Positions 1 to 61,803 are shown, numbered from the stretch's first letter. The stretch is DNA of 64,000 bases from a virus (IMGVR_UViG_3300028920_000023); one strand, 5' to 3'. Notes: generated from the letters alone by a model not told the origin. Numbers and translations: made by a program.

Positions 1-866
1 CTAGCATGTTCCAACCTAGTCTTATAAGCCTTCATCCTAATCTCAAAATCAACCTCAGCACAATAATTGCGGAGTAATAAAGAAACAGGACCACTTAACT
101 CAGAAACAGCCTCCGGATTATCCAACAACGCCTCACCAACCGCAGTAGGCAAAGCCCTGCGGATATGTCCCAAAGCATTCTCCGATTTGCTAGACAACCA
201 TCTCTCCAACATAGACAAAGCACGCTTGACTTTCATTTTCTTGCATATATCATCAAATTCAGGCTTAGTAGGAGAAGATAAAGACTGAATACTACCTATA
301 ATCACCTGATTCCCATTCGGCATATTCCCAAAACAGAACATACCAACATCATTATTATGGACAACATTACGAAGATTAACTCTCTCTACGATCTGTTCGA
401 GAACAACAACCTGCTCCGTAATAACCACAGTAGGACAACGAAACATCTTAATCAAACCACAAGCAACCTCGGTCTTACCACTGCCCGTAGTCGATTTGAT
501 AATACCTATTTCCTTCTCACAACACACCTTAAGAGCATCAACCTGATACTTCAGAAGCGTAATACCATCCAACAGCGTCTCAGTTATCTGATCACGATTA
601 GGAGCCGGATATTTCGGCGCAGGTCTCTCGTCAGAGATCTCCAGAGGTATTCTATTCTGCTCACAACATATCTTAAGTTCATCTAGGAAAGATAATTCAA
701 GTCTAGCGTGTTTCTGGTTGTATTTCCTGACCCACCCATCCCAATCGCTTGTGGAATATCTTGCTCTTGGGTCTAATACTGAAAAATGGGATTTAACTAC
801 GTCTTCATTGTCTGATGTTAGTTGCTCTAGATAGATGTGTCTGTTATCAATTATCCTTGCCAGCAC
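1..866 (-). CDS. UvsW-like superfamily 2 helicase, N-terminal part (runs off window start; absent from ORF track)
   Basis: Manual translation from GTG at 866 (AAGGGG SD upstream): VLARIIDNRHIYL...LLKYQVDALKVCCEKEIGIIKSTTGSGKTEVACGLIKMF, which has a Q-motif and a Walker A (TGSGKT). Open to position 1. Confidence 0.8.
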   Translation of the reverse strand, partial: MLARIIDNRHIYLEQLTSDNEDVVKSHFSVLDPRARYSTSDWDGWVRKYNQKHARLELSFLDELKICCEQNRIPLEISDERPAPKYPAPNRDQITETLLDGITLLKYQVDALKVCCEKEIGIIKSTTGSGKTEVACGLIKMFRCPTVVITEQVVVLEQIVERVNLRNVVHNNDVGMFCFGNMPNGNQVIIGSIQSLSSPTKPEFDDICKKMKVKRALSMLERWLSSKSENALGHIRRALPTAVGEALLDNPEAVSELSGPVSLLLRNYCAEVDFEIRMKAYKTRLEHA

Positions 867-8228: not shown

Positions 8229-8423
8229 ATGACAAAATTTGAGAAAAAACTAGACAAAATACTATCAGAAATGCTCGGGACGCATATAAAAGCACCAACA
8301 CGAGCATTCCGAAGAGCAGGACTAACACTCAGAATAGGCAAAAGATTCGACGGACCGCCAGAAACACGATACAAGAAAATGATGACAACAAATTTCAAGA
8401 ACCAGATGACATTCTACATATAA
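8229..8423 (+). CDS. small hypothetical protein
   Basis: 64 aa, A/C-rich codons like other plus-strand genes, divergent from CYTH. Confidence 0.45.
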   Translation: MTKFEKKLDKILSEMLGTHIKAPTRAFRRAGLTLRIGKRFDGPPETRYKKMMTTNFKNQMTFYI

Positions 8424-10150
8424 TATATAAACCTTTTCTTCTCATACCCCCATACCTTGTGATATCCGAACTTCTCACAATATTCTGATTCAGGCATTCT
8501 CATCTTGGATGCCTTATTCCACAGTGTTTTCTTATGGCAGACATACCCGAGATGATCTACATACCAGTAACTAGGTTTTACTATGCCGTCCAATCTCCAG
8601 TTAGATGCTTTATATATAGTTCCATGATGATTAAAAGTTAGATCTGCAAATGTAATTAAACATTTTATATCTGAGCGGTAAGATTTTATGGCTTTAATAG
8701 ATCGTGAAATCATAAAACTAGCAAAATTTTTCTTCTGATAAGAAGGATGTATACACAACCTTGTAAGTTCCAACATTTCTTTTGGTTTAAATCCTTGCTT
8801 ATCCGCAGATTCTTTGCGAGTTAAGGGACCATAACAAACGACTCCGATTAAAATCTCGTCACAATAGAAGCCAATATAGGTCCCTCTTTTACCTAATCTA
8901 CCAGAATAATGATATTTTCCGACGAACAAAGTAGCTTCGTCCACATCAACTGGCCTAATTACAACATCTTTAAATTCAAAATCTGTCTTCTTTACTTCCC
9001 CAATATTCAACCAATATCGGATTGTGTCCATGACCCTATCTTGGTTATCAAATTCATGCTCCCATATATACTTGATATCATACTTTGGATGATACCTTTT
9101 GGTGAATGTGGCTTTAGACCGATCTTTTGAAACAGTATGTGGTAAAGAATGCCAATAATCTCCATTTATATCAATCAATAAAGGCCTATGTATACCAAGT
9201 GATTTTTGTGGATCTATCCTACAATCCCAAATATAATAACCAACTTTGCACATCTCTGATGTATCGTCGTGATATTCTATCCCAAGATCTGCTAACATGC
9301 TGTAGAATACCTTCTGGATCAAACTTGTTCTAGGTTGGTGTAACCTGATTATTGCCATTTTCTCCCTAAATGATGATGAATTAATGATCTCTAACATTTT
9401 GTCTCTGTATTCCGGATCTTGCCATCTCTTTTTAGATGCCAGAGAAGCTTTTTTCCTCATAACATCATCACGCCACATTTCCCGTGATTTTTTAGCAATT
9501 CGTTCCCATGGTATCGTCTCTTTCCATTTACGGACCCATTCTGGATCAGAAAATAAAAGTTTATTTCGATCAGAACTTAATTTAGCCATCTTCTTTTTAT
9601 ATTCTGGATTAAGCCAGGGCATCTTACCATATTCTGACATCTGTTTACGAAAATCATCAGTAACCAGAAAATCTCTCCAATTTCCACGCATATTCCTCCA
9701 GAAAGTTGAAGAAGATTCACTCAACTTCTTCTTAAATTCCGGAGTATAGATGCCATCAAATTTCCCTTCTTTATGTGCTCTGGAACCAGAGCAAGACTGA
9801 CACGAAAAACGACCATCATTTCTACGTTTATTAGCTAAATAATTTCTGTATTTAAGAGTAATTTTACTCTTGCAAACACTACATTCTCTGGTGATAATAT
9901 CAGAATGCAAAGTCCTCCCAGAATCCTTGGCCTTCTTGGCCAACTTCCTACCAATTGCTTTTCCATTTTCTTTGACTTTACAAGAATGACAAACATATTC
10001 TTTTCTTGATAAAGTATTGACATAATATCTTATTCGCATTACCTTAATCTCTCGTATAGAACCACATCTCACACAACCCAAAGGCACTTTATCATGACTG
10101 GTAAGGTTCTCTATCGACTTTATCTCAAATATTCCTTTTGATGTCAACAT
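8414..10150 (-). CDS. Zn-finger/helical-repeat + Vsr/DUF559-like endonuclease + Mom-like GNAT fusion (copy A)
   Basis: CxxC clusters; KKRWQDPEYRDKM-type repeats; YIWDCRI..DINGDYWH..IWEHE nuclease segment; KYHY..LIGV..ELTRLC..ASFMIS..ITFAD..HHGTIYKASNW Mom-like segment. Confidence 0.75.
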   Translation of the reverse strand: MLTSKGIFEIKSIENLTSHDKVPLGCVRCGSIREIKVMRIRYYVNTLSRKEYVCHSCKVKENGKAIGRKLAKKAKDSGRTLHSDIITRECSVCKSKITLKYRNYLANKRRNDGRFSCQSCSGSRAHKEGKFDGIYTPEFKKKLSESSSTFWRNMRGNWRDFLVTDDFRKQMSEYGKMPWLNPEYKKKMAKLSSDRNKLLFSDPEWVRKWKETIPWERIAKKSREMWRDDVMRKKASLASKKRWQDPEYRDKMLEIINSSSFREKMAIIRLHQPRTSLIQKVFYSMLADLGIEYHDDTSEMCKVGYYIWDCRIDPQKSLGIHRPLLIDINGDYWHSLPHTVSKDRSKATFTKRYHPKYDIKYIWEHEFDNQDRVMDTIRYWLNIGEVKKTDFEFKDVVIRPVDVDEATLFVGKYHYSGRLGKRGTYIGFYCDEILIGVVCYGPLTRKESADKQGFKPKEMLELTRLCIHPSYQKKNFASFMISRSIKAIKSYRSDIKCLITFADLTFNHHGTIYKASNWRLDGIVKPSYWYVDHLGYVCHKKTLWNKASKMRMPESEYCEKFGYHKVWGYEKKRFIYYM

Positions 10151-10208
10151 GTTCTTTATCCTTCCTATGTCTTGTCACGTCCTTGATGATTCGGTAAGTA
10201 TATACATC

Positions 10209-10237
10209 AAAAAACCCAGCCTGTTGAGCTGGGTTTT
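10209..10237 (-). terminator. rho-independent terminator after the tail sheath gene
   Basis: AAAACCCAGC/GCTGGGTTTT stem, U6 tract on the minus strand. Confidence 0.8.
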
Positions 10238-10266
10238 CTGTTAAGCTGGATTTGAATGACAAAATC

Positions 10267-13128
10267 CTAGGCAGACGTAACAACACCACCAGCCTGCAAA
10301 ACTTCCTCACTGCTAAAGCTAGCCTCTGTACGGAGAACTACCAAATTAAGCTGGATGAACTCAGCAGCGCGCGTCGGCTTAAGGAAGTAAGCCACGTGTA
10401 ACTCGTTCCTATCTATTCTCTCCGGAGTATTATTGCGCTCATCACAAACCACCAAGAACGCAGTCAACCCACGGCGAGCCTGAATATCAGCCAAGAAAGG
10501 ATTACTCGCACTAACCACCCTGGCCCGGGTAATCGCATCATTCGGCTCAAAAACGAACTCACGCAAGAAATTAGTAGCATTCTTCTTAATGTAAATCAAC
10601 AACATCCGAACATTCACACGATCCAACGCAGACTGACGACGCTGCAAAGTCCTCTGACCCCAAACCGTAATCCCATCCTGCGGGAAATTCACAATCGGGT
10701 TCACAGCATTACCACTACCGTACATCAAATCCCGCTCGCCCTGAGTCAAATCAACCTCAACATCAAGCGGAGTAAGAAGACGACCACGAACAATACCAGC
10801 AGGCGCAAACCAAGTCTCAGCAACATTCTCAGTACGAGCAAAAACACTGCTCACATGCCCACTCGGAGGAATGAAAATATTCCCACCATTGAACTGGTCA
10901 AACACCTTCAACCACGGATGATACAAAGCACCATAACTGGAATTAATCGTCTGAGTCAAATCACTGAACAAAATACCATTATGCCAATCAACAACCTGCT
11001 GAGCGCGAAGACCAAACGGAGAATCCACAATGTACAAACAATCTCCACGACCCTCACAAAGCTGCAACCCCTGGCCAATCACAGCACCAGAAGTAAAGCC
11101 AGGAATCACCAGAACACTAATATCATAAACCTCCGGATTGGAGAAAGCAAAAATCCCCGTCTCCAAAGAAGGATTACCAATCACAGCACGATCAAGCTCA
11201 GAAGAATAAGCCGGATCAGTCGGAATACCATCAGCCTGACCACTCATCGCAGTACGGAAGAACGAACCAGGAGTCCGAATCTCGAAACTAGAATCATTAG
11301 GATCATTATTCAAGAACGAAGGTCTCGGAATCCACTGAACGTACGAATTACCATTCTCACCACCGTATCGAGAACCTTCATTAATCACATTACCAATGTA
11401 ACGATCATCAGTAGGATTAAAAGAAATATCCTCGATCCGATCTAGAACCTGAAGATTCCCATCCTCAATCAGCAAGACGAACCGGCCAGCAACATCACCA
11501 GCAGCCTCGCCAGCCGAGAAAATATCCAAGCTATACAACAGATTATCAACCCAAGTACCCGGAGTCTTAGCAACAAGCCAGCCTACAATATTCTGGAAGT
11601 AAGCCGAATCCAACGCACACTCATCACTAACCGGATCAACCTCACAAGAAAGAGGAGAACTTGGAGTCGTAGCACCAGCATCCGGAAGAGTCGTACGAGC
11701 ATCAAAGTAAACCCGATAAGCTTGCTTATACGGGAACTGGATACCCAACGTCTCAGCAAAACGAAGAGTTTTGAAATTAGAGGAAGTAGCCTGTAATTCT
11801 AATTGATCAAATTGATGACCAACCGAAGTCTCAACCACTACCTGCACTTCACCACCAGGAGTTATGATCGAGTAAACATCGAAGTATCTGTCCCCACCAG
11901 AAATACCACCAAGATCAATAGCGTTAGCTACCTGCTCAGCAGTTTGGGACAGACCAACCGGGATACTGAACTCGATATCCTCGGTTTCTTCTTGGCCTAC
12001 CACCTTGATCCTAACTCGGTTGTTCTCGGTTGTGATGTCGTAATACTCGGTTATTGTCGAGATGAGGTTGGACCTGGGTATGTCGTAAGCATAGAGCGTT
12101 TGTCCAACTTCCAGAGAAAATCCTTCTGTACTCACCAGCTGGATGCTCTCACCTGCCGTATCGGTCCGGAAGCACACTGTGTTGTCGGATTGTGCTACCG
12201 CGATATATGGTTCGCTGCTGGGGATGAGGGCGTTGATTGCGTCTGCGAAGTCCTCTGCAGAGTCAAAGGAGGTTCCATCAGCGATTGTGTATTCGTTTAT
12301 TGTAGACGAGTCTTGTCTGTCTACGTTGAATGAGAAGATTCTGTTGTCGGGACGTACGGTGAAGGTGAAGGTGTCGTTTGCCCCGATCGGTACGGTTCCG
12401 GTGACGACTACGGTGAAGACGAGGCCGTCTCCGATGTCGATTGGTTCACTGGTTCCGAGGGTTCCGCTTTCTACGAGGGTGTCTACTAGGACGGTTATTC
12501 CGTCGGAGTTTCGGATTACTTCGAAGTCGGCTCCGTCAAGCAGGGATCCTCCGGTTTCGGTGGGATCGCTGGTGAGGATGATGGTGTAACTGTCGTCGAT
12601 TGCACCTTCGTAGGCTGTGGGGTCTGCGAAGACGAGCGTGGCGGATGCTGGTCCTTCTGTGGTGTTGATTTCTATGTCGTTATAGTCGATGTTGCCGACG
12701 TCTGCTTCATGGAAGTTCAGGGCGTTGTCTTCGTCGATGATTCTGGTGCAGATTTTGCCGAAGTCGATGCCGGTGAATACGGGTACTCTGCCCCATCCTG
12801 ATTCTCTGGCTCCGCTGTTGTCGATGCAAATGTCGGAAAGTTCTTCCGGTTGTCCTTCTTCGCATTCGACTCCTACTCGGAGTATCCAGGCACGGGAGCC
12901 CTCTTCGAAGTATGCTAGGGCTGCGTAGCCCATAAAGCTTTCGGGAAAGGGTTGACCGAACGTATCGATATATTGCTGTGAGTTCGATACGAATGTGGGC
13001 GTTTGTAATGGCCCTCTGTTAGCTGTTCCTATAAACGCAGGGGTTAGCGCTCCTGTCGCTGTCGGAATTACGCTGAGGTCAATTTCCCGTGTAAAGACGC
13101 CAGGCGAGAGGTATACTGCCATGATCAA
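10267..13128 (-). CDS. tail sheath protein
   Basis: YLSPGVFTREIDLS N-terminus; PPSGH, WFAPAG..RG, NPI..F..G..VWGQRT, RVNVRM, FEPND C-terminal sheath motifs. Confidence 0.95.
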   Translation of the reverse strand: MIMAVYLSPGVFTREIDLSVIPTATGALTPAFIGTANRGPLQTPTFVSNSQQYIDTFGQPFPESFMGYAALAYFEEGSRAWILRVGVECEEGQPEELSDICIDNSGARESGWGRVPVFTGIDFGKICTRIIDEDNALNFHEADVGNIDYNDIEINTTEGPASATLVFADPTAYEGAIDDSYTIILTSDPTETGGSLLDGADFEVIRNSDGITVLVDTLVESGTLGTSEPIDIGDGLVFTVVVTGTVPIGANDTFTFTVRPDNRIFSFNVDRQDSSTINEYTIADGTSFDSAEDFADAINALIPSSEPYIAVAQSDNTVCFRTDTAGESIQLVSTEGFSLEVGQTLYAYDIPRSNLISTITEYYDITTENNRVRIKVVGQEETEDIEFSIPVGLSQTAEQVANAIDLGGISGGDRYFDVYSIITPGGEVQVVVETSVGHQFDQLELQATSSNFKTLRFAETLGIQFPYKQAYRVYFDARTTLPDAGATTPSSPLSCEVDPVSDECALDSAYFQNIVGWLVAKTPGTWVDNLLYSLDIFSAGEAAGDVAGRFVLLIEDGNLQVLDRIEDISFNPTDDRYIGNVINEGSRYGGENGNSYVQWIPRPSFLNNDPNDSSFEIRTPGSFFRTAMSGQADGIPTDPAYSSELDRAVIGNPSLETGIFAFSNPEVYDISVLVIPGFTSGAVIGQGLQLCEGRGDCLYIVDSPFGLRAQQVVDWHNGILFSDLTQTINSSYGALYHPWLKVFDQFNGGNIFIPPSGHVSSVFARTENVAETWFAPAGIVRGRLLTPLDVEVDLTQGERDLMYGSGNAVNPIVNFPQDGITVWGQRTLQRRQSALDRVNVRMLLIYIKKNATNFLREFVFEPNDAITRARVVSASNPFLADIQARRGLTAFLVVCDERNNTPERIDRNELHVAYFLKPTRAAEFIQLNLVVLRTEASFSSEEVLQAGGVVTSA

Positions 13129-13212
13129 TTCTCCTAGTTCGGCATCAAACCGCCGTTAATCATACTTATATTTGCAGAGACTTTTTAAGATGATTAACTA
13201 GGAGAAGTCATG

Positions 13213-13509
13213 TTATGATTCTAGGTTAGAGGTATCCAATATTACTCTGATCATTCCTCTTTTAGATAAGCGCTCGATTTGCGATTCCCATAATCTGTCT
13301 TTAACGACCTCGATATGCTGATTTGGTCGTATGGGCTTATCCACAGCACCTAAAAAGAAATCCACTCTCTTGCCGTCTTCTTTCTTTGGAGATCGGAGAT
13401 GGATGGTTACCAACTGCTTGGATGTGTTCAGTATACGAACAATATCAGCCGTTTCTTTCTTGGCTTTTCTGGCTTGCATTTCCCGTACTGTTAATGGTCT
13501 CTTAGCCAT
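13213..13509 (-). CDS. hypothetical protein
   Basis: 98 aa, GGAGGAG SD, lies between the tail completion and sheath genes. Confidence 0.65.
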   Translation of the reverse strand: MAKRPLTVREMQARKAKKETADIVRILNTSKQLVTIHLRSPKKEDGKRVDFFLGAVDKPIRPNQHIEVVKDRLWESQIERLSKRGMIRVILDTSNLES

Positions 13510-14386
13510 CTCTCCTCCTCGTTTCGGCTAAAGGTAGGTCCTTTTTGCCGGAAATTGTTCCTAGTAATTCTCCGGTGGCAAGTTTGCCATCACCTTCCCG
13601 TAGAGTAGTTACTGTGCCGAGAATAGTAGGAACAACTTTATTCGGAAGAGGAATCCAACCTTCCATAGTAATCCTATAATCATGACGTTTATTCTGACGT
13701 TGCTCCGCAGGAACCTCATCATCAACAGCAAAAGTCACACCATCATACGTCATAAACACCGAACCACGCAAATGATCATCCTCAACAAGAAACTCCGCAG
13801 TAGGGAAAAAACGCCTATGCAACTGATAACCAATAACCTCCAAATCCCTCTTATGCTCAGCCCACACAGACAACAAATAAGAAATCTTAGCCGGTATAGG
13901 ACGATATACAAGAGCAACCCTACTCGCATCCGAGTCAAGATACCTCTTATTCATATAATGACCCTCAGGACTAAACTTCTCATAATGAAACTCACTAGAC
14001 TCCCTAGTAATAGACATAACAGGAAGACTAATCCTACCCTTCCTAAGATCCTGCGCCCAAACCAAATAAGGCTTATCCCCACCACTAATCCTAACCTGCA
14101 ACATCCGGACACTATCCTGCGTAGGAACAGGCATACCAGCAAAATAATTCTTAATACCCCTATCCATAGTACGAAACCCAGGCTCCATGATCTCATGAAC
14201 TTCCTGGGAGATGTCTACATTCTGTCTCTCAAATAGAATATCATCCCTAGCCGTACCCTCATTCTTCATCTTCTGAAGCATAGCAGGACGGGGCTGTTCC
14301 AAACCCTTACCATCCTTCGGCGTCTCATATTGAGACGTCTGAACTATCGGATTGGACTCGTTGAAGTCAAAATCATATACTGGCAT
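13502..14386 (-). CDS. tail completion / sheath stabiliser (T4 gp15-like)
   Basis: LPVMSITR, PIPAKISYLLSVWA, YRITMEGWIP motifs; position upstream of the sheath. Confidence 0.65.
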   Translation of the reverse strand: MPVYDFDFNESNPIVQTSQYETPKDGKGLEQPRPAMLQKMKNEGTARDDILFERQNVDISQEVHEIMEPGFRTMDRGIKNYFAGMPVPTQDSVRMLQVRISGGDKPYLVWAQDLRKGRISLPVMSITRESSEFHYEKFSPEGHYMNKRYLDSDASRVALVYRPIPAKISYLLSVWAEHKRDLEVIGYQLHRRFFPTAEFLVEDDHLRGSVFMTYDGVTFAVDDEVPAEQRQNKRHDYRITMEGWIPLPNKVVPTILGTVTTLREGDGKLATGELLGTISGKKDLPLAETRRRDG

Positions 14387-14703
14387 TATTTCTTCCTATC
14401 AACGAGGTCAATGATCGTAGACTTCTTAGAAAGACGTTCAAAAGCAAACTTCACCGCCGAAGTCTGTTGCTCCACCTGCTGAGCCTTAGAACCAGACGGA
14501 TCCTGCTTGGTTTTCGGAATACCAACAGTCACACCGCTCGGCTTAAAACGCACTAGGGGCACCAACCTACCCTCTGATTTGGTTTTTATTGTCTGTTCTG
14601 CATCCTTGGCCGCAGACACAATGATCTTCTTTTTAAGATCTTTCATCTTAGCTGTAGCTAATCTTCGTATATCTTTAGTCGATTTAACAATTATTTTGGA
14701 CAT
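14386..14703 (-). CDS. hypothetical protein (tail-completion region)
   Basis: 105 aa, AGGAGG SD. Confidence 0.55.
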   Translation of the reverse strand: MSKIIVKSTKDIRRLATAKMKDLKKKIIVSAAKDAEQTIKTKSEGRLVPLVRFKPSGVTVGIPKTKQDPSGSKAQQVEQQTSAVKFAFERLSKKSTIIDLVDRKK

Positions 14704-16844: not shown

Positions 16845-17459
16845 TTATCCGTCAGCTTGATTTGCCTTCGTAGGAAGAAGAGAAATGTCGCCACTGATAT
16901 TTTGAACCAAACAAGACCAGTAAAGCCAGCGATATTTGAAATTTCCTGTATCACTAGACTTAATAACCCTATAAGTATCAATACTATTACCCTTATCCTG
17001 CCTCAAATCCGTAAACTGGGTAACAGCTAAGGTATTATGAGGAACAATTAGAACATCACCCTCAGCAATCATCCTCCTACCAAACAACCTCAACACAGAT
17101 GCCCTAGAGAAGTGCACCGTAGTCTCATTCTCAACATCTACGCCCCACTTCTTGATCTCGATCTCAGCGGGCTCTGGCTCGAACATCCCCTTCAATTTTT
17201 TGGGGGCAAGGTATGTTGGATCAGCATCTTCTTCCCATACTTCGTCTCTACGATCTGATCTGGTTCTTGGATAGATTTCTATCCATGCTCCAGATATGTT
17301 CACGATCTCTTCGGCTTGTCTTTCTGCGAATGAGATATCCGGGCTACCATGGTTATAGGTAGAAAGTAGAGAATTTTGCTTTTCCTCATCAGAACGATAA
17401 TCGGGAAGATTATCCCTAGTATCGTATTGCTGATTAAAGTCGAAATTTATAATAGACAT
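16845..17459 (-). CDS. neck/head-completion protein (T4 gp14-like)
   Basis: EEIVNISG, VWEED.DP.Y, KWGVD, EGDVL.VP motifs. Confidence 0.6.
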   Translation of the reverse strand: MSIINFDFNQQYDTRDNLPDYRSDEEKQNSLLSTYNHGSPDISFAERQAEEIVNISGAWIEIYPRTRSDRRDEVWEEDADPTYLAPKKLKGMFEPEPAEIEIKKWGVDVENETTVHFSRASVLRLFGRRMIAEGDVLIVPHNTLAVTQFTDLRQDKGNSIDTYRVIKSSDTGNFKYRWLYWSCLVQNISGDISLLPTKANQADG

Positions 17460-17983
17460 CAGTAGAACTCCGCACTAAGCCTGCCCTGTGGATCAACAGG
17501 TTCAAGTGGGCCAGGAACTGGCGTCAAAGAAGCCCTCAGAGGATCATTTGGGATCAGATCCGGGTCTGGTGCTCTCCTGAGCGGATCTTCTGTGGTAACG
17601 CACCCCGTGAAGTTAGACCCTTCGCTACTGCACAGTGGGTCTTCCGGATTTTCTGGTTCTCTTACCTTGGCATTATCTTTCAGAATTTTGTACCAATCCT
17701 CGACACAATTCTTAGGACAAAAATTGCCGTTTGGGGGTGGTCCTTCCGGTAGTTCAAAAAAGATCCCGGTGCTATTCTGTCCTCTTGGGAGTAGAGTTCT
17801 AACCAATCTGGATCCTGGTATAAGCTCTAGTGCATCTTCGACTGGTATTATAGAGGCATTACAGTTGATGTTTCTACTTAGGGCTAGTCCTGTTAGACTG
17901 CTTGTGGGTTCACATCCTGGTACTTGTAGGACGTTTCCTGGTTTGACTTCTAGTTTGTTTCGTATAGTTATTGTAGTACTCAT
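17459..17983 (-). CDS. hypothetical Pro/Cys-rich protein
   Basis: 174-aa ORF coupled to the gp14-like gene. Confidence 0.55.
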   Translation of the reverse strand: MSTTITIRNKLEVKPGNVLQVPGCEPTSSLTGLALSRNINCNASIIPVEDALELIPGSRLVRTLLPRGQNSTGIFFELPEGPPPNGNFCPKNCVEDWYKILKDNAKVREPENPEDPLCSSEGSNFTGCVTTEDPLRRAPDPDLIPNDPLRASLTPVPGPLEPVDPQGRLSAEFY

Positions 17984-17999
17984 ATCTTATCTTTGAATA

Positions 18000-18521
18000 T
18001 TATCGGTAAGCTCCAACGCCTCTCTTGTATCGAACAATCCCCTGCGCAGTAGCACTAGGATTCATCAAAATCTTAGCAGCAATACCAAAATGAACATTAG
18101 ACTCAAGATCCTCAATCTCAATATTATCGCTCGGATCCACATCATTCTCTAAAAGAAAATCACGAATACTAGACAACTTATCATCCGTAAAACCATACAT
18201 CTGAAAAGCATTATTCTGAACCCTAATCCACCCCATCTCAATCATAGCATAATCACGTGGATCAGAACCATCCCTGAAAAACTCCACGGCTCTCTCATCA
18301 GCACCATTCTCCAGAAGCCACTCCGCAACCTCATCAGACAGAGGCTCCAGAGGTATAATTTCAGGCGTATCTGGATCATCCAAATCCACACCGAGAGCAC
18401 TGGATAAAGCAATCATCATATGATTATAATCACTAATATCCCCATCAGCAAAGGTCTCTTGACCACTATCATCAAGCCACCATTCGCCGGATATAGACTC
18501 AGCTATCTGCCACATGTTCAT
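18000..18521 (-). CDS. hypothetical acidic protein
   Basis: 173-aa ORF with typical minus-strand codon bias. Confidence 0.6.
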   Translation of the reverse strand: MNMWQIAESISGEWWLDDSGQETFADGDISDYNHMMIALSSALGVDLDDPDTPEIIPLEPLSDEVAEWLLENGADERAVEFFRDGSDPRDYAMIEMGWIRVQNNAFQMYGFTDDKLSSIRDFLLENDVDPSDNIEIEDLESNVHFGIAAKILMNPSATAQGIVRYKRGVGAYR

Positions 18522-21974: not shown

Positions 21975-22046
21975 GCCACCATGGCTCAGCGGTAGAGCAG
22001 TGCCTTAGTAAGGCTCAGGTCGCAGGTTCGAATCCTGCTGGTGGCT
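21975..22046 (+). tRNA. tRNA-Thr(AGU)
   Basis: GCCACCA/TGGTGGC acceptor stem, GCTC/GAGC D stem, anticodon loop TT-AGT-AA (AGT at 22007-22009), GCAGG-TTCGAAT-CCTGC T arm, C2-G71, U73; CCA not encoded. Confidence 0.9.
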
Positions 22047-22048
22047 CT

Positions 22049-28619: not shown

Positions 28620-30794
28620 TCAGTCGCAGGAAGTTATAACGTTCTCGTCTACTTCCTCAGGAGTATATTCGACAAACGCCCTATCCTCTGGCTTCCTCTT
28701 ATCCTGTTTGATCTCCTGCGGATCAAGCGGTGTATTTCCACTACCAGCTTCTTCTTGTGCGCCCCCACCAGGTGCAGCACCGGGAAGAAAACCATTCAAT
28801 TCAGGAGCATTCACAGCCACATCAGTATTAACACCATTACCAGCCAACTGCAAATGCCCAGAACCAGAAGACTCGAAATCTATATTAGAACCAGCTTTGA
28901 ATGAAATCCTGTTAGCAGCCTTAAATGCTATATTCCTACCAGAGACAATCTCGATATCCTGTTGACAATAAATCTGAATCTTACCATTCTCATTATTCCG
29001 GATAATAACTGTATCGTTCTTATCATTAATGACGATATACTGTTCTTTACCCTCTTTAGCCCTAAGAACACTTATACCCTCGTTCTTAGATAGCCATAAA
29101 CCACGATCCTCAATATCGACAACCTCAGTCCATGCACCATCCTGACCTACCCTACCATCACGAGCCTCCAAACCCTGGTTAATACCACCCTCCGCAGAAG
29201 CCAAACCAAGAGGCTCGTCTCTCCTACCATTATCTCCTCCGGCAGCTGTCTTTAGTCTAAGATAACCATTATGCTTATCTAACTTAAAATGATAAGTATC
29301 CTTCTCAGGTTCTTCCGTCATCGCTACCTTAGTAGCAAATTCGTTCTCTTCTAATTTCTTCCATTCACGAGATACCTCCGAGTCGGTATCTGTGCACGCC
29401 ATAATATAATCTTCTCTATCATTTAATTCTACGATCTTGGATTTAGGAGAATACCATCTTGTTGTATTTAATTCGTCTTTATCGATAGCTTCAAAACCAA
29501 AACCCCTCGCTGCTCCAGGGCTGTCCGTCCAGCTTCTTCTGGTTTTAAGCAGCCAGCCATTACCTCTGGGGAGTTCCTCTGCCTCAGCATCTGTTGGACT
29601 TGTCCCCCTATCATCTAATACAAACTTAAACCCATATCTTGTCACAAAACGCATCTGCCGAGAGTCACGTTTTGTCCAACCATGCTCTTCCTCTAAATCA
29701 CCCTTAGATCCTACTTCATCTATAAGTTTCTTCTTATAGAATTCATCCTCCGAGGGATGGAAACCTATGTCCATTAACTGGATCAGATGTCCACCTTTAG
29801 TTCTCCATTTCATCCATCTCTCATCAGATTTTGCATTTCTAGATAATATCCTCTGTGGGCCATACTCATCGGATCTACTGGTGCCACCTACGGCACTACA
29901 CCCGGACATCGATCCGCCTTGTTGCGCCCATCCTACGTCTCTCATTTCGAATTTATGACCAGCTCTAGTTAGAATTAGGTATTTTCTTTGGTCCTGCTCA
30001 TTAGAGTCTGGTTGATCTTCGTTCAATAGTCTAGTTAGGTATTTGCTGCGTTCTATTTCAAAATCCCGGTCTTTCTCAAAATCGCCTTCGAATTCTCCTA
30101 ATGATCCTTCTTTTTTCCAATAGTACCCCACATCTGATTGTAGAACCAATATTCCGTATTTGGTTACTTCTGTAACGTATTTCCTGTCTGGGTTGTTTAT
30201 TTCGGGTTTTGCGCCTATGTCGAAGTTTCGTCTGGCTATGGCGTCTGTGTCTGGATCGGCTGGTTTTATATCGTGTTCTACTGGGAAGTATCCTACGGAA
30301 CTTGCTATTTTGTAGTTTCCATAACGGTCTCTTTGGCCGTTTGACATTGGTCTGTAGTCTTTTGGTAGGTATTCTTGTAGGTAATCGTCTGGTGTTTCGT
30401 CGGCACTTCCGTCTAGTTTGAGTGCTAGTGGGCTTGGGTGATATATGGATTCTAGTGGGTATCGTTTTCTTCTTGTTCCAGATGCGAATCCGCACCAGAT
30501 TGGTCCGTAGGGGTGGTTTTTCTCCCAGGTTATCCAGATTATGTCGCCGATTATGGGGTGTGTCCAGGACCCGGCGTTTTTACCTCCTAGGTAGGGTGCT
30601 GGTATTGCCCATGGACATTCTGTGTTTCTGATGTCTTCGTCGTGTAGTTCGGGGCATTTGAATCTTACTCGGTATATCTGTAGTGGGTCGTTTGTGTCTA
30701 TAACTAGGGCGCGATACCAGCCTGGAAAGCGGTTGAATAAGTCTTTAACTCTATTCTGGTGGAATTTCCCCCATACTTGTCCTAGATTGTCCAT
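28620..30794 (-). CDS. baseplate hub / spike protein (gp5/VgrG-like, N-terminal OB fold)
   Basis: YRALVIDTNDPLQIYRVRFKCP, PWA.P, P.IGDIIWITWE...P.W; C-terminal beta-helix repeats (IEIVSGRNIAFKAANRISFKAG). Confidence 0.85.
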   Translation of the reverse strand: MDNLGQVWGKFHQNRVKDLFNRFPGWYRALVIDTNDPLQIYRVRFKCPELHDEDIRNTECPWAIPAPYLGGKNAGSWTHPIIGDIIWITWEKNHPYGPIWCGFASGTRRKRYPLESIYHPSPLALKLDGSADETPDDYLQEYLPKDYRPMSNGQRDRYGNYKIASSVGYFPVEHDIKPADPDTDAIARRNFDIGAKPEINNPDRKYVTEVTKYGILVLQSDVGYYWKKEGSLGEFEGDFEKDRDFEIERSKYLTRLLNEDQPDSNEQDQRKYLILTRAGHKFEMRDVGWAQQGGSMSGCSAVGGTSRSDEYGPQRILSRNAKSDERWMKWRTKGGHLIQLMDIGFHPSEDEFYKKKLIDEVGSKGDLEEEHGWTKRDSRQMRFVTRYGFKFVLDDRGTSPTDAEAEELPRGNGWLLKTRRSWTDSPGAARGFGFEAIDKDELNTTRWYSPKSKIVELNDREDYIMACTDTDSEVSREWKKLEENEFATKVAMTEEPEKDTYHFKLDKHNGYLRLKTAAGGDNGRRDEPLGLASAEGGINQGLEARDGRVGQDGAWTEVVDIEDRGLWLSKNEGISVLRAKEGKEQYIVINDKNDTVIIRNNENGKIQIYCQQDIEIVSGRNIAFKAANRISFKAGSNIDFESSGSGHLQLAGNGVNTDVAVNAPELNGFLPGAAPGGGAQEEAGSGNTPLDPQEIKQDKRKPEDRAFVEYTPEEVDENVITSCD

Positions 30795-31111
30795 TATAAT
30801 AGCCTCATTACTGAATCCTTATTGGGGAATTGTATTGTTTCCCCTGCTTGTGGCCATCCTAATGTATTTAGTGGTCTGTTGAACATTGTGATTACCCAGA
30901 ATAGGGATGGTGTTCCGTAATATTCTTGTGATATTAGGTCTGGTCTTCCTTGGTTAATTTGGTCTATTTTGATGGTTGTTATTTGTTCGTCGTTGAGGTT
31001 TTTTCTTTCTAGTTCTGGTGGTCTGTTCCATAGTCCGAATGTTTCTTTGCCGTCTTTTATGACGGGTTCGGTGTCTTTAAATCTTGAGAATTCGCTGGTT
31101 AGTATAGGCAT
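30794..31111 (-). CDS. baseplate protein gp53-like (LysM/TailX-type)
   Basis: GRPDLISQEYYGTPSLFWVI..FN. Confidence 0.8.
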   Translation of the reverse strand: MPILTSEFSRFKDTEPVIKDGKETFGLWNRPPELERKNLNDEQITTIKIDQINQGRPDLISQEYYGTPSLFWVITMFNRPLNTLGWPQAGETIQFPNKDSVMRLL

Positions 31112-31114
31112 GTT

Positions 31115-31660
31115 TTAGTACCATGTGAGTGCTGGTTTCTGGAGATTCTTGTTTATTATCTTAGGGTCACTTGTCTTGGTGGCTAGATTCGTGGCCAGCT
31201 CTAGTAAGACAGCTACCTTAGTGTAAAGCGGGTGTATTCCTTGGTTTTCTATAATTTCTGGTCCAAAAGTTATATTGACGTCCCTTATTCTAAATTGGGT
31301 ATTTTGCGGTATTGTCTTAGTATATCTTACCTGCACAGTAGGATAAATCCGTTTATTTTTTATTTCAAATTCGAAGAAATAAGATTTTAGTTTCTTGAGT
31401 TCTAAACCGACTTTTGAACAATTGAATTTCCTATCCGAGGCCAAATATTCCCATTCCATATTGACCCTTCGGCCTTGAGATCCCTTATGAATTCTCAGTG
31501 GTTCATAAGACCATTGTGGTACTTCCATCCATAAGGAACTGTTGTTCTCAGAAACTAGCTTAGGAGCAAATTGAAATTCTATGCGCTTAGAATTATACAA
31601 TTTAAACCAACATTGCTCAGCTAATTTCTTATCAAATTGTCTCAATGATGAGTCTGGCAT
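31115..31660 (-). CDS. putative tail-tube initiator / baseplate protein
   Basis: FQFAP.LVSE...W, YEP, LEL motifs; lies between the tape measure and gp53. Confidence 0.5.
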   Translation of the reverse strand: MPDSSLRQFDKKLAEQCWFKLYNSKRIEFQFAPKLVSENNSSLWMEVPQWSYEPLRIHKGSQGRRVNMEWEYLASDRKFNCSKVGLELKKLKSYFFEFEIKNKRIYPTVQVRYTKTIPQNTQFRIRDVNITFGPEIIENQGIHPLYTKVAVLLELATNLATKTSDPKIINKNLQKPALTWY

Positions 31661-38606: not shown

Positions 38607-41333
38607 CTAAGAACACTTAGAACTACCACAATCTTGACAAGTCCTACAAGTGCCCTCAAACTTCACATTACTACTACCACAATCAGTACACTTAAACGAA
38701 CCCTTAGCTTCCTTAGCATCAATATACTCAGTCAAAGCCCTCGCAATAGCCTTAGCAAACGACGTAACCGTCTCCTGAGACTTCAAAATCTGATCAACCA
38801 CAAACTCAATAGGAACACCATGCCTCAAAGAAGTAGAAATCAGCCTAGTAATAAGAGAAGCAGCCTCATCCTCATACCTATTCAATTGTCTTACAACCAT
38901 GGCACCACTCTCAAATTCATAAGTACCCTTCGCTTCGCCCTTATTCTTATGCTTAATTATATGACCCTTCTGCCTATCTGCAACACCAGCCTGAGCATGA
39001 TCTAAAGCAAAAACCTCGAAAACTCTACCCTTCAAAAACCCAATAAACACCGTATATATCTTACCATTCGGCTTAATCAAACGAACAACCGCATCCAACT
39101 TCCTAGGCCTCTTAGGAGACTTATGGCGCTTAATTTCAGATTCAGATTCGGATTCCGTAACCAAAACACCCTCTCTACTACCATCACGATAGACCGTAAT
39201 ACCCTTACAACCAGCCCTCCATGCCTCCTGATAATAATAGGAAATAACATCAGGCTTGCAATCCCTAGGAAGATTAACAGTATTACTAATGCTCTGATCG
39301 ATATACCTGTTCGTCACGCTCTGTAATCTGATCCTATGCTTCGGATCTACATCATGTGCCGAAATAAAATAATCAGGCAAATCCTCAGTATTATGAATCT
39401 CGCAATATTTCCTAGCAGCTGGATGAAATACGGTATGATGTTCTACCTTCTTTGACGTCCCCAGATTGGTCTTTCTCACATGCTTCATTTGGAATACTGG
39501 CTCTATCCCGGATGAGCATTGGGATATAAGAGAAAGAGAACCCGTAGGTGCTATGGCATGGATGCTTATGTTTCTGAGACCCTCTTTCTCTATTCTCCGT
39601 GTCAATCCCTCTGGGAGAGATTGCATGAATTCAGACTTCATATGGGTCTTGAAATCATAAACGGGAAAAGCACCTTTCTCAACTGCTAAATCACATGACG
39701 CCTCATAACTGTCATGGGCAAAACGGCTCATTACCTCTTCTGTCAATTCTATTGCAGACTCGTCATCAAAACGCATGCCCATCATCAGGAACAGATCAGC
39801 TAGGCCCATGATGCCCAGACCTAGGCGACGTCCATTGTCATTGGCCCATTGTTGGAATTCTTGTGGGGCTTTTTCTAGCGTTATAATATTATCTAGGAAA
39901 CGAACAGCGAGTTTTACATCTGATCCGAATTTATCATAATCGAATTCAGCTTCACTTGAAAATGGATCCTTTACGTATTTGCTCAGATTCATTGAACCTA
40001 AATTGCAGGAATCACCATGGGATAACAACGTTTCACCACAATTACCAATAATTACACCATTAGCAACAAAAGAATTTGTTTTTGGTTCTGTAAGGCAGAA
40101 TGTCTCATCTATTTTAAGATATGAGATAGATATTATTTTGGATTTAAATTTATTGTTATCTTCATAAGACCATAATTCGTCTCCTTTATTTAATTGTAAC
40201 AATTCAATTCTGCTACCATCAGTTTTTATGAATTTATGATTAGAGGTAGCATCTATATAAGAACCATTGTCCAATAATACTCTGAAGATCTTTTCTGATT
40301 TAGAAGTCCTATAAACTCTTGTTGCCTTCCCAGGACCATTAATAGTCATAATATCCAATACCAGACCTTGATCCCTGCTAATATACTCCTGATATTCGCC
40401 TTCTGCCCATAATTGTCTGGCTGTCTTATAACCAGAGTCTGTAAGAATCCTTGTATCACCAGTAATGCAAGGATTTGTAGTAACACACCCAAAACCACCA
40501 TAATGATGCGCCGGCACCGTCCTCTTAACAGTATCCCAAAACAACATACCAGGCTCACCACGCTTCCACGCACGATGAATTATCTCATTCCAAACCTTCC
40601 TAGCAGGGACCGTATCAAACACCTGGCCATTCCACTTCAAATCATACTCTCCGTCATCCTCAACAGCCCTCATAAACTCATCAGTAATCTTAACCGAAAC
40701 ATTCGCATACCGAACTAAATCAAGATCATCACCGCCCTTGATCTTAATGAAATCCATAATATCTGGATGATCAACATCAATCGAAATAAGCAAAGCACCT
40801 ATCCTACCATTCTGACCAATCATACCAGTCACAGTACTGAAAAATTGCATAAAAGAAACAGAACCTGATGACGTCCTAGCGGCATTGTGTACAGGCAAAC
40901 CTTTGGGTCTAAGCCTCGAAATATCGATACCACAACCGCCTCCGGCCTTGTAGGTCTCAGCCATCTTATATGCTGTATCGAATATACCTTTAATGGAATC
41001 TTCCTGAATGTCTATGACGTAGCAATTTTTTAGGGTTATGTTGGCATATGGGTTTCCTAGGCCGTATAAGATTCTTCCACCTGGTACAAATTTGAAATCT
41101 TCTAATAAGTCTCTGAATTTTAATTCAAATTCTTTTTTCAGCTGTTTTATTTCGGCTTGTGATATTGCTTTGGCTAATCTATCCCATAGGTGTTCTGGTT
41201 TATGTTCTGTATATAATTTGGTTTCTGGGTCTTGTAGGAAGTATTTGTCCACTAATATTTTGGCTGCTAGACGGTCTTTTGTTATTGTTTCGCATGTTTT
41301 ATATGCTTCTTCGATGGTGATACCTTCTGGCAT
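38607..41333 (-). CDS. nrdJ: class II (B12-dependent) ribonucleotide reductase with intein and C-terminal TSCPD/Zn ribbon
   Basis: FVPGGR, NCYV, GGGCG.D.S.LRP, TTNP|CGE, SCNLGS, RRLGLG.MG, IAPTGS, DQSISNT.N, CKGITVYRDGSR. Confidence 0.93.
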   Translation of the reverse strand: MPEGITIEEAYKTCETITKDRLAAKILVDKYFLQDPETKLYTEHKPEHLWDRLAKAISQAEIKQLKKEFELKFRDLLEDFKFVPGGRILYGLGNPYANITLKNCYVIDIQEDSIKGIFDTAYKMAETYKAGGGCGIDISRLRPKGLPVHNAARTSSGSVSFMQFFSTVTGMIGQNGRIGALLISIDVDHPDIMDFIKIKGGDDLDLVRYANVSVKITDEFMRAVEDDGEYDLKWNGQVFDTVPARKVWNEIIHRAWKRGEPGMLFWDTVKRTVPAHHYGGFGCVTTNPCITGDTRILTDSGYKTARQLWAEGEYQEYISRDQGLVLDIMTINGPGKATRVYRTSKSEKIFRVLLDNGSYIDATSNHKFIKTDGSRIELLQLNKGDELWSYEDNNKFKSKIISISYLKIDETFCLTEPKTNSFVANGVIIGNCGETLLSHGDSCNLGSMNLSKYVKDPFSSEAEFDYDKFGSDVKLAVRFLDNIITLEKAPQEFQQWANDNGRRLGLGIMGLADLFLMMGMRFDDESAIELTEEVMSRFAHDSYEASCDLAVEKGAFPVYDFKTHMKSEFMQSLPEGLTRRIEKEGLRNISIHAIAPTGSLSLISQCSSGIEPVFQMKHVRKTNLGTSKKVEHHTVFHPAARKYCEIHNTEDLPDYFISAHDVDPKHRIRLQSVTNRYIDQSISNTVNLPRDCKPDVISYYYQEAWRAGCKGITVYRDGSREGVLVTESESESEIKRHKSPKRPRKLDAVVRLIKPNGKIYTVFIGFLKGRVFEVFALDHAQAGVADRQKGHIIKHKNKGEAKGTYEFESGAMVVRQLNRYEDEAASLITRLISTSLRHGVPIEFVVDQILKSQETVTSFAKAIARALTEYIDAKEAKGSFKCTDCGSSNVKFEGTCRTCQDCGSSKCS
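40041..40469 (-). mobile_element. 143-aa mini-intein at the RNR active-site Cys
   Basis: NP|CITGDT...ATSNHKF...TFCLTEPKTNSFVANGVIIGN|CGE; no endonuclease domain. Confidence 0.92.
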
Positions 41334-41985
41334 TTTTATCTCCTAGTTCTGTTCCTAGTATCTCTCTGATTTGAGGTTTGTAATTTAGAATCAGTTTGTG
41401 TCTTTTAAATCTCATTTCCCTTTTACTGGGAAGCATTGATAACTCGTCATCGTCAAGTTGTTCTAATGCCTCAATGCAAGATTTGGATAAGGAGATAAAC
41501 CCTGCAGTTATGCGTCTCTCCCTGAACCATCGGACAATATTGGCGTATCCTAATCTTCTTTTACGCTCCGATAGTGTCTCTTTTAGGTTTCTCTTTTTCC
41601 CGACTTTCATTTCTTTTAATACGAAAAGATATGATGCTTGTATATTCTTTATTTCTCTCATCTCGTCATTAACTTCACGTTCAAGCTCGTTTATACATTT
41701 ACTTATAGCATCCTTCTCGTCCAGTATCGCTATACCCCTTCGATACAATGATTTAGTCTTGTAACCATCTTCCACTATATGTGCAATAACAGTTGACATC
41801 ATATCGTCCGATATATCTTCTTTCTCTAGCTTCTTAACGAAATTATTTAAATATCTCCAACTATAAGTCTTTCTTGGATCTGTATTATCTGGGAATTGTA
41901 TCGACTTCTTGTATCTCAGAGCGTTTTTCTGAAATAATTCGTAAACACGAAAAATTTTCTCTTCTCTAGTAGCTTCTGCAATCAT
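41299..41985 (-). CDS. hypothetical protein
   Basis: 228 aa, overlaps the nrdJ start. Confidence 0.6.
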   Translation of the reverse strand: MIAEATREEKIFRVYELFQKNALRYKKSIQFPDNTDPRKTYSWRYLNNFVKKLEKEDISDDMMSTVIAHIVEDGYKTKSLYRRGIAILDEKDAISKCINELEREVNDEMREIKNIQASYLFVLKEMKVGKKRNLKETLSERKRRLGYANIVRWFRERRITAGFISLSKSCIEALEQLDDDELSMLPSKREMRFKRHKLILNYKPQIREILGTELGDKNARRYHHRRSI

Positions 41986-60334: not shown

Positions 60335-60617
60335 GCCTAAATCTCCTAATCTTACCAAGATCAGATTTAAACTTAATGCCCTTCAAAGCATCAAGCCCAA
60401 CCTGCAAATTATAATCAGCAACCTTAACAACATCATCCCCAGGGACTTGTATCGTAGTTCCCTCTTTACAACACACAAGAAAATTCGTATCCGCCACACG
60501 AGCTACAACAATCCAATTGCCATCTGGAGACGCAGGCCTACCAGCAGGGCCAGAAAGGTAAGAAACATGCTTCGCAGTACGAAGCTTAACTAAATCAAAT
60601 CTTCCAATCATGATCAA
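60312..60617 (-). CDS. hypothetical protein
   Basis: 101 aa overlapping the recA start. Confidence 0.5.
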   Translation of the reverse strand: MIMIGRFDLVKLRTAKHVSYLSGPAGRPASPDGNWIVVARVADTNFLVCCKEGTTIQVPGDDVVKVADYNLQVGLDALKGIKFKSDLGKIRRFRHGQKEDK

Positions 60618-60645
60618 AAATATCTACAGACGCGGAGAATACAAA

Positions 60646-61131
60646 ATGAAGCAAATAGAAAAACAAATTATAGAAGGTATATCGAACCTCTTCGACAACT
60701 CAAGAAGCAAACTAGGAATAGTCAAAACAGACCACAAAGAAACCTCCCACGGATTCGAACACCAATGGCACAACATAGAATACGCCTATGCCCTAGAACT
60801 AACCGAATCCGCATTCTATGAAAGCCTGACCTCCGCATTCAGAGACATCCACAGCTACAAATACCTAGACGATCCAACCTTCCCAATAGCACTAGAAAAA
60901 AGACTAACAGCTATAGGAATACCCACAGAAGAACGCAAAAAAGCACTAGAAGCAATAGAGAAAATAAAAGAAGAATTCAAAAAAGAAGACTTCGAAGAAA
61001 AAGAAGCAGGCTGGAACATCAACATAAACGACATCGCAGACATGACAAGAAACGCAAACAACAGAAAAGCAGAAAACACCAAACCCTTCACAGGTGGTGG
61101 GCCAGCCCCAGACAACAATGAAATTGGATAA
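60646..61131 (+). CDS. hypothetical protein
   Basis: GGAG SD before the ATG at 60646; strongly A/C codons. Confidence 0.6.
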   Translation: MKQIEKQIIEGISNLFDNSRSKLGIVKTDHKETSHGFEHQWHNIEYAYALELTESAFYESLTSAFRDIHSYKYLDDPTFPIALEKRLTAIGIPTEERKKALEAIEKIKEEFKKEDFEEKEAGWNININDIADMTRNANNRKAENTKPFTGGGPAPDNNEIG

Positions 61132-61360
61132 CCTCCACAAAGCTCCTATAGAAATGGACATGGAAACAAGCACAACACTAAAACCACTGTCCAAAAAACA
61201 ACAATATATCAACAAAGACATCTCTATGAACACCACATCACCATCAAGACCTACCCCCAGCGCAGGCGGACCATATCAAGGAGGACATTACGACGCCTAC
61301 ATAGAAGGAAAACCCAGATATAAGAAATACTTCGGTGGCTCCTTCATGAAAGCAATATAA
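61094..61360 (+). CDS. hypothetical protein
   Basis: Likely internal start near 61154. Confidence 0.45.
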   Translation: MVGQPQTTMKLDNLHKAPIEMDMETSTTLKPLSKKQQYINKDISMNTTSPSRPTPSAGGPYQGGHYDAYIEGKPRYKKYFGGSFMKAI

Positions 61361-61803
61361 TGTCCTGTAACTGCCCAACAGAACAAACATTCCCACAAGA
61401 ACAAAAACAATTCAGCCTCACAAACCGTATAGAAATAGCCAAAATAGACCAAATCTGCAATACAAACAGAAATAAATTCGACATGCTCAGATTTAATCTA
61501 AACAAAACAATAAAACAGTCAGTAATAACATTAGGAATAAAACAATCCGAATACGACGTATACCTAGTTTACGAGATACAAAACGGCAGATTCGACCTAC
61601 ATCAAAAATCATTCTCTGACTATATAGAAAGAAAAAGTATCTACTTCTTCGTTAACAAAGCAATATCAAAACCACTAAAATACCTAAACACCAAATTGTA
61701 TGACCTATGGAGAACAAAAAGCGGAAATATAGGAACTAGTACAACACCCTTCCCAATACCAACAATAAGATTCCCACTAATAATGCCATCTAGAGAGCTC
61801 TAG
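61360..61803 (+). CDS. hypothetical protein
   Basis: TAATG coupling to the previous ORF. Confidence 0.55.
   Translation: MSCNCPTEQTFPQEQKQFSLTNRIEIAKIDQICNTNRNKFDMLRFNLNKTIKQSVITLGIKQSEYDVYLVYEIQNGRFDLHQKSFSDYIERKSIYFFVNKAISKPLKYLNTKLYDLWRTKSGNIGTSTTPFPIPTIRFPLIMPSREL

Follow-up and report, generated by a model that had tools for sequence, protein, structure and literature searches.

Reversal of a strong silent-site strand bias inside the tail sheath gene of a giant uncultured myovirus

The viral DNA considered here, a 64,000-nucleotide stretch of IMGVR_UViG_3300028920_000023 (hereafter the window), carries nearly all of its genes on the minus strand. One of these encodes the tail sheath (10267..13128, minus; 953 amino acids according to the open reading frame (ORF) list and its translation, with the ATG at 13122 as the likely start), and partway through it the choice of silent letters reverses. 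Residues 650-930 of the protein match Phage_sheath_1 and Phage_sheath_1C (Pfam), and the ORF matches annotated tail sheath genes in tblastn searches. Upstream lie an 84-nt spacer, a gene for a 98-residue protein (13213..13509) and gene 13502..14386. An identical sheath protein is recorded on three contigs, the longest of 354,787 bp; the source is a giant uncultured myovirus. Full-length relatives of the sheath number ~140 in IMG/VR and the JGI metagenomes (47-75% identity); scans of these collections gave none closer than 75% amino acid identity (78% on partial matches), and a megablast of positions 10,000-14,500 against 50,697 phage records gave zero matches. Because relatives at 75% identity or less are saturated at silent sites, a direct substitution spectrum for the window is not obtainable; the comparative work on the skew draws instead on about 110 relatives, and the comparison of gene sense on 85 non-redundant ones.

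Silent letters were read at four-fold degenerate sites, which are independent of amino acid content, as G+T on the coding strand. Within the sheath gene, G or T occupies 242/267 of these sites in 10273-11926 and 16/127 in 12178-12949 (Fisher p = 1e-54). By segment, G+T is 90% over 10,273-11,959, 26% over 11,983-13,619 and 13% in the core of the reversed patch (12,178-12,949); beyond the upstream change point it is back to 0.91 (13625-14551). A two-change-point maximum-likelihood fit puts the switches at 11,959-11,995 and 13,619-13,628, with a gain in log-likelihood (lnL) of 142; in shuffled data (n = 200) the best single change point gains 2.4 on average and 6.5 at most. Two-fold sites switch in step with the four-fold ones (c/a vs t/g), and raw composition reverses as well: GC skew goes from -0.25 to +0.2, AT skew is inverted, and GC rises from 41% to 52%. 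A step in G+C at third codon positions (GC3), from.30 to.53, coincides with the flip and is lacking in the relatives. By codon position, G+T in the core is.58,.45 and.12 at positions 1, 2 and 3; in the sheath 3′ part it is.57,.50 and.84. Amino acid composition is ruled out as the cause, since the flip is present at four-fold sites. The initial annotation had placed such a reversal at 11950-13650, switching mid-gene and crossing gene boundaries; the fitted switches fall within about 30 bases of these limits, and the reversed zone does span the sheath start, the 98-residue gene and the end of 13502..14386. Its plus-strand G+T counts (35/60 in the line at 12361, 21/60 in the line at 10921) are exact, the codon strings it quoted stand in sheath frame 0 at 12394-12420, 10969-10980 and 10927-10938, and the significant change points at four-fold sites, whose absence it had named beforehand as speaking against the flip, are present.

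Hidden Markov model (HMM) segmentation and the change-point fit assign the sheath 3′ 60% (10273..11959, minus) to the usual state of this genome, with G+T ~0.90 (T.64, G.27). Site listing and composition then define a transition zone (11960..12177, minus) in which A/C and G/T silent letters are mixed, with T ~ C, A ~ G and a GC3 of.54; such near-equalities are expected where two opposed transition pressures overlap. The core of the patch (12178..12949, minus; sheath codons ~60-317) has A.39, C.48, G.06 and T.06, hence a G+T of 0.13, and a GC3 of.54. A weaker reversed zone (12950..13619, minus; G+T.38) takes in sheath codons 1-58, the spacer, the 98-residue gene and the last 39 codons of 13502..14386. 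Site by site, 12,763-12,230 is nearly pure A/C, ~250 bp (12,220-11,960) are mixed, and everything below 11,930 is nearly pure G/T. The upstream change point inside 13502..14386 (13619..13628, a boundary not assigned to either strand) is sharp, with a 2-lnL support interval of 13,625-13,628 and agreement from sliding windows. Its polarity is terminus-like; that of the junction near 11,970 is origin-like.

The sheath promoter is ruled out as the patch boundary: the promoter-like word at ~13,170 lies in the weak zone, 450 nt from the change point. This word, AAATATAA at 13166-13173 (minus), stands in the 84-nt spacer ~45 nt upstream of the sheath ATG and is similar to the late-promoter word of T4; the T4 consensus for late promoters, TATAAATA, does not occur at the patch boundaries, and k-mer enrichment upstream of genes gave weak A/T-rich words only (top 7-mers AAAAATA and AAATATA, p about 1e-4 to 1e-3). 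The reversed patch also contains long antisense ORFs, at 11803-12333 (plus, 176 amino acids) and 12143-12589 (plus, 148 amino acids). Third positions of the latter coincide with those of the sheath frame, and it is probably a by-product of A depletion at these shared positions, not a gene.

Could the flip be a false join between two co-occurring strains? The sequence evidently comes from a metagenome assembly, and single samples can contain several of the relatives. Such a chimera is nonetheless scarcely credible: the ORF is intact and its 953 amino acids align full-length with relatives; G/T- and A/C-type sequences differ at nearly every silent site and so lack the common k-mers on which a false join would depend; at the 3′ junction the letters change gradually; the identical protein occurs on three contigs; and the same type of patch is found in many independent assemblies.

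The initial annotation described the flip as a property of this stretch; it is real, but it is not unique, because the whole window is a patchwork of three silent-site states. The HMM resolves a G/T-rich state (T.66, G.22, pyrimidines.72) to which about half of the silent sites belong, a neutral state covering most of the remainder (A.25, C.175, G.185, T.39; pyrimidines.56) and a mirror-image A/C-rich state covering a few per cent. Were ~85% of all possible T>C and G>A changes made in the neutral state, it would take on the make-up of the sheath core, its pyrimidine share passing from.56 to.54. Since these changes, applied to neutral sequence, reproduce the patch, the GC3 step is accounted for without foreign DNA, and the unchanged pyrimidine share marks the sheath patch as transition-only. 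The reading preferred here, with a probability of about 0.5, is that the flip records a strand-specific transition pressure acting in place, whose target strand switches locally.

A pressure of this kind should follow the DNA strand. In the plus-strand ORFs of the window, codons end in A/C, and among the 85 relatives G+T is.40 in opposite-sense genes and.53-.58 in genes of the sheath sense; together these results tie the bias to the DNA strand and not to translation, in agreement with the initial annotation, which had described the plus strand as generally A/C-rich whatever the direction of the gene. None of the plus-strand ORFs matched a PHROG family, so it is the ORF layout that speaks for their reality. 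Three of them, tightly packed at 60610-61803 (173, 88 and 147 amino acids), have 86-93% A/C at silent sites; relative to the neighbouring minus-strand genes, their bias is a mirror image in coding terms and the same in strand terms.

The pressure is also felt where amino acids change. At codon positions 1-2 of residues 400-953, differences between the window (G/T-type here) and L081, a relative whose sheath is A/C-type throughout, run 126 to 63 in the predicted direction (p = 5e-6), and those between L081 and L001, a neutral relative, run 94 to 184. These sequence comparisons indicate that the pressure reaches amino-acid-changing sites and acts on base composition, by mutation or by selection on composition, and not on synonymous choice; a mutational origin fits most simply.

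If the letters were changed in place, both parts of the gene should share one ancestry; if the patch was imported, they should not. The import scenario, which the initial annotation had raised as mosaic segments from oppositely oriented relatives, would have homologous recombination with a related phage, one with an A/C-rich sheath-sense strand, bring in a 1.65-kb stretch (the tail of the upstream gene, the 98-residue gene and ~385 codons from the start of the sheath). T4-like phages recombine intensely, and possible donors of the right type exist in the same subclade: whole-sheath A/C alleles in L081 and L082 (two samples; G+T.08), and an A/C state over residues 43-800 in L004 (G+T.16). L003 has one over residues 75-477. 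The 13,620 boundary, sharp to a few bases, and the GC3 step that relatives lack point the same way, as does a shift toward A/C at the amino acid level in the patch (32 vs 52, p =.04), per codon about as strong as that in L081. The phylogenies by segment that had been proposed as a check place the window, for residues 60-330 and 400-953 alike, in the same 17-member clade beside L001-L004 (99-100 in the Shimodaira-Hasegawa-like approximate likelihood ratio test, SH-aLRT). What does change within that clade is the nearest row, which is L001 for the C part and L003 for the N part, but the forks concerned are weak or open. Identity of the window to L003, an A/C-type relative, is 71% in the N part vs 71% in the C part, and to L001 70% vs 78%; the N part is thus relatively closest to L003, a shift that could arise from convergence under the same bias.

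A donor should also betray itself by synonymous identity. At shared four-fold codons, identity to L003, L004, L008 and L010, and to all relatives, is about what composition gives by chance, and a search of 5.8 billion proteins yielded at most 72% identity across the patch. Its 3′ boundary is no clean break but a mixed gradient of 250 bp, and the GC3 step and the make-up of the patch are reproduced by transitions from the window's own neutral make-up. Of the mosaic claim, the existence of A/C-type relatives stands; a supported phylogenetic jump, an excess of synonymous identity and a closer donor were not found, and import, the chief rival reading, is on balance unlikely.

In-place change can be followed more directly in the nearest relatives of the window, L001 and L002, whose sheaths are 93% identical in amino acids; their silent differences run in the two directions seen in the window. 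In the 5′ zone, 56 sites went from G/T to A/C and 18 from A/C to G/T, toward A/C in L002; the corresponding numbers in the 3′ zone are 48 and 76 (Fisher 4e-7). Of these directional changes, 72-78% are transitions, chiefly T/C. In the A/C patches of L002, divergence is.080 vs.126 in the background for amino acids and.42 vs.47 for four-fold sites, and a second L002 patch sits in a gene with 96% amino acid identity. As divergence is not raised, no diverged DNA was brought in there; this equivalent patch, formed without added divergence, is a further point against import of the sheath patch. Some G/T patches of the neutral relatives may have a different history and arrive with inserted DNA. Directly downstream of the L002 sheath, ~2.2 kb with two ORFs (L002:12365-14616, G+T.67-.76) are missing from L001, and the largest G/T patch of L002 (14206-15718) begins in this insert.

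The sheath reversed patch as delimited in the segmentation (12178..13619, minus) is the largest of five in the window. The others, identified by HMM and composition and likewise on the minus strand, lie at 729..858 (5′ end of gene 3..866; A.69, C.19), at 17726..18030 (first 86 codons of 17459..17983 and the last 10 codons of the gene upstream), at 30153..31184 (first 214 codons of a gp5-like hub gene, the whole gp53-like gene 30794..31111 and the tail of the gene upstream, named from Pfam/PHROG) and at 40938..41356 (first 132 codons of 38607..41333 and the tail of the gene upstream). All 5/5 occupy the 5′ part of a gene and a few codons of the gene upstream, and in long window genes G+T tends to climb from low to high along the gene. 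With A at.6-.7, the four smaller patches mirror the G/T state exactly and seem to be older; the sheath patch is probably younger than the other tracts. The most extreme gene of the window is the gp53-like baseplate wedge gene (30794-31111, minus), in which 95% of four-fold sites are A/C (A.72; G+T 0.05). Two further genes deserve mention. A 578-residue protein encoded at 8414-10150 carries a C-terminal Mom-family domain (PF25680, E = 4e-31); its gene is AT-rich with neutral skew, and orthologues in relatives lean G/T (.60-.71). The sole tRNA of the window, tRNA-Thr with anticodon AGT, is encoded at 21975-22047 (plus), on the strand that carries very few of the genes; a tRNA with A34 would match the habit of ending codons in T.

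The relatives are 95% neutral, yet G/T and A/C patches occur everywhere in them, and family-wide the A/C patches cluster in the first fifth of a gene, the G/T patches toward 3′ ends. In 40-codon bins over 23 kb, with the Mom-fusion gene left out, the profile of the window correlates with an average taken over relatives whose silent sites are saturated (rho.51, p = 8e-6), and it still does when the sheath, too, is removed (rho.41, p =.004). At sheath residues ~40-265 the A/C state recurs in L002, L003, L004, L008, L010, L081, L090 and L155. Import leaves both the gene-5′ location of all five reversed patches and the match between window and family profiles unaccounted for.

Do the junctions mark replication landmarks? 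If a bidirectional origin lay near 11,970 in the sheath gene and forks were blocked or terminated at 13,620, the patch would be copied in the opposite direction. Each strand does pass from A/C-rich to G/T-rich, 5′ to 3′, across 11,959-11,995, as at bacterial origins, and in the opposite sense at 13,620; L004 and L003, too, have an origin-like switch within or just past the sheath gene; and T4 origins lie within late-gene regions and use R-loops. The geometry is hard to reconcile with this idea, which is quite improbable: the reversed arm measures a mere 1.65 kb, five arms of 0.13-1.65 kb, every one of them over a gene's 5′ part, would fall within 64 kb, and among relatives the position of the switch varies from residue ~100 to residue ~800. 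The sequence at 11,970 is ordinary coding sequence, with no AT-rich spacer, iterons or repeats, and a promoter and pattern scan gave nothing distinctive there.

The pressure acting in place could instead work as follows. In this lineage, C>T and A>G transitions would steadily deplete one DNA strand of A and C, and older tracts would show some additional change from purine to pyrimidine. The strand so depleted would, across most of the window, be the minus strand, which codes for nearly all genes; in a few short tracts on gene 5′ parts the plus strand would be targeted, so that the coding strand undergoes T>C and G>A and its silent letters turn to A/C. The physical cause can be pictured in two ways, exposure or gap filling, which these data do not separate. 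The plus strand may stay single-stranded longer in the tract, leading to deamination of C and A, for instance where a fixed barrier near 13,620 is followed by a leading-strand gap or an R-loop; a fixed barrier with a variable far end would fit one sharp and one fuzzy boundary. Or it may be resynthesised by an error-prone gap-filling polymerase prone to G.T mispairs. A broader proposal, offered tentatively with the odds slightly short of even, is that in giant T4-like phages a site-anchored process recodes single-copy genes in place, turning the silent positions of one strand to G/T over 0.1-2 kb and switching strands at fixed points near gene starts, as a single-copy phage counterpart of the skews known from the repeats called GRINS (Nivina et al., 2021; PMC8256042). 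Such a process would probably report which strand was left single-stranded, or was refilled by a polymerase without proofreading, during recombination-dependent replication. The initial annotation had offered a local reversal of strand exposure or copying as its other explanation. This part fares better than the mosaic, being favoured by the transitions, the amino acid positions, the L001/L002 pattern, the family profile and the junction polarity; the origin or R-loop that it named was not identified, and a true origin is hard to square with five short patches in 64 kb.

Several observations pull the other way. Intergenic DNA is weakly skewed (.45-.72 vs.9 at four-fold sites), codon positions 1-2 of the window hardly depart from those of orthologues (in the G/T part,.535 vs.514), and its polarised replacements show no bias; both the intergenic and the codon-level results are odd for a pure, long-standing mutation pressure. 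A test of neighbour-base context found no deaminase signature and no context dependence. The sharpness of the 13,620 boundary, to a few bases, is equally compatible with a recombination junction. Recurrence of the sheath 5′ patch falls partly within one clade, and by a rough estimate ~4 cases are expected by chance vs 7 seen, a moderate enrichment. Of 14 independent close pairs, the 13 other than L001/L002 lack the two-sided 5′/3′ pattern; a coupling of 5′-A/C and 3′-G/T changes in every lineage is thereby ruled out. Finally, in two samples (L081:1616-4552 and L082:2-1696) the orthologues of 13502..14386 and 13213..13509 are inverted relative to the sheath, and the inverted genes keep G/T endings (.72-.81) and the sheath its A/C (.08), a pattern that can be read as gene-linked. 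These contigs amount to an inversion test of the strand bias set up by nature. At the divergent junction of L081, the plus strand is A/C-rich throughout; the arrangement can be read either as a strand-fixed bias of opposite sign or as gene-linked states.

Would selection explain these observations better? Silent letters might be chosen for a property of the mRNA or DNA, such as a 5′ part that is A/C-rich and free of structure in late messages with high expression. The weak intergenic skew, the hardly biased replacements of the window and the coding states that two L081 genes kept despite the inversion of one would all suit this, as would the origin of the L002 patches without a raised substitution count, the position of the reversed patches on gene 5′ parts and the family-wide 5′ to 3′ rise in G+T. 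Selection on the message is very improbable all the same: the mirror bias in the plus-strand ORFs of the window and in the opposite-sense genes of relatives tracks the strand and not the message; the tracts, 130-1,650 bases at 87-95% purity, are far longer than known start-codon effects; the pressure changed amino acids in L081; and recently inserted mobile genes lack the bias.

To our knowledge, a silent-site bias of ~90% that flips inside an intact, conserved structural gene goes far beyond known replication or transcription asymmetries. The only published parallel, GRINS, comes without a mechanism; the sheath patch adds a single-copy example that can be compared with ~110 natural relatives, evidence for tracts formed in place by transitions and without imported DNA, and a link to gene 5′ parts with a weak family-wide profile. 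If asymmetric exposure or error-prone gap filling is the cause, the tracts preserve a record of past DNA replication and repair in uncultured giant phages; if recoding is indeed anchored to sites, silent-site composition becomes a historical map of gaps, barriers or R-loops on the phage chromosome. There are practical consequences, too: the tracts distort host prediction based on codon usage, create long spurious antisense ORFs, and can mislead phylogenies and recombination detectors.

Which known systems come closest? The literature search found no paper on such patches in phages. Vertebrate mitochondrial DNA, with its G+T-rich H strand and A+C-rich L strand, offers the same four-fold letters and the same C>T and A>G changes on the strand exposed as single-stranded, independent of gene direction. 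Its sign is uniform or is changed by inversions of the origin, and it is graded with exposure time; in the phage, by contrast, the sign switches every 0.1-2 kb, even within genes, with neutral tracts between. The keto skew left by replication in bacteria and phages is likewise strand-fixed, and it shares with the present case a weak family-wide bias of the same sign and junctions of origin and terminus type; the two differ in magnitude (~90% here vs a few per cent) and in scale, with patches of 0.1-1.7 kb and five reversals per 64 kb here, where origin features were not found. Kataegis at resected breaks or in break-induced replication (yeast, cancers) consists of single events, C>T only, in a TC context. 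It resembles the phage tracts in being kilobase-scale and strand-coordinated and in having a fixed point at which the strand hit by the changes switches. The phage tracts differ from kataegis in having lost both A and C, in showing no context and in having been filtered by selection over long times; their two junctions also differ in polarity, which at 13,620 would suit exposed 3′ tails and at 11,970 outward synthesis.

The nearest counterpart is found in bacteria. GRINS, described in polyketide synthase (PKS) genes of high-GC Streptomyces, are skewed repeats with >80% identity to a copy in the same cluster and with gene conversion between paralogous modules; their mechanism is unknown (Nivina et al., 2021; PMC8256042). 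Skewed regions present in a single copy are also noted by the same authors, who propose error-prone synthesis with mispairs of the G.T type (PMC8256042). By definition, GRINS exceed 500 bp, have mean absolute GC and TA skews both >0.15 in 150-nt windows, and are duplicated at >80% identity. The sheath patch is long enough (core 772 bp, whole ~1,650 bp) and skewed enough (|GC skew|.21 and |TA skew|.30 in the core;.24 and.31, of opposite sign, in the sheath 3′ part), and its skew is strongest at position 3 of a functional gene. It differs in copy number: a self-BLAST of the 64-kb window gave no match touching 11,900-13,650, only two short unrelated repeats. Unlike the high-GC Streptomyces hosts, the phage has 41% GC, and about half of its silent sites are affected. 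What the sheath patch and GRINS share is the form of the signal: GC and TA skews are correlated, both signs occur on one strand within a kilobase, the switches are abrupt, and the third positions of intact genes are affected most, with a slight effect on amino acids.

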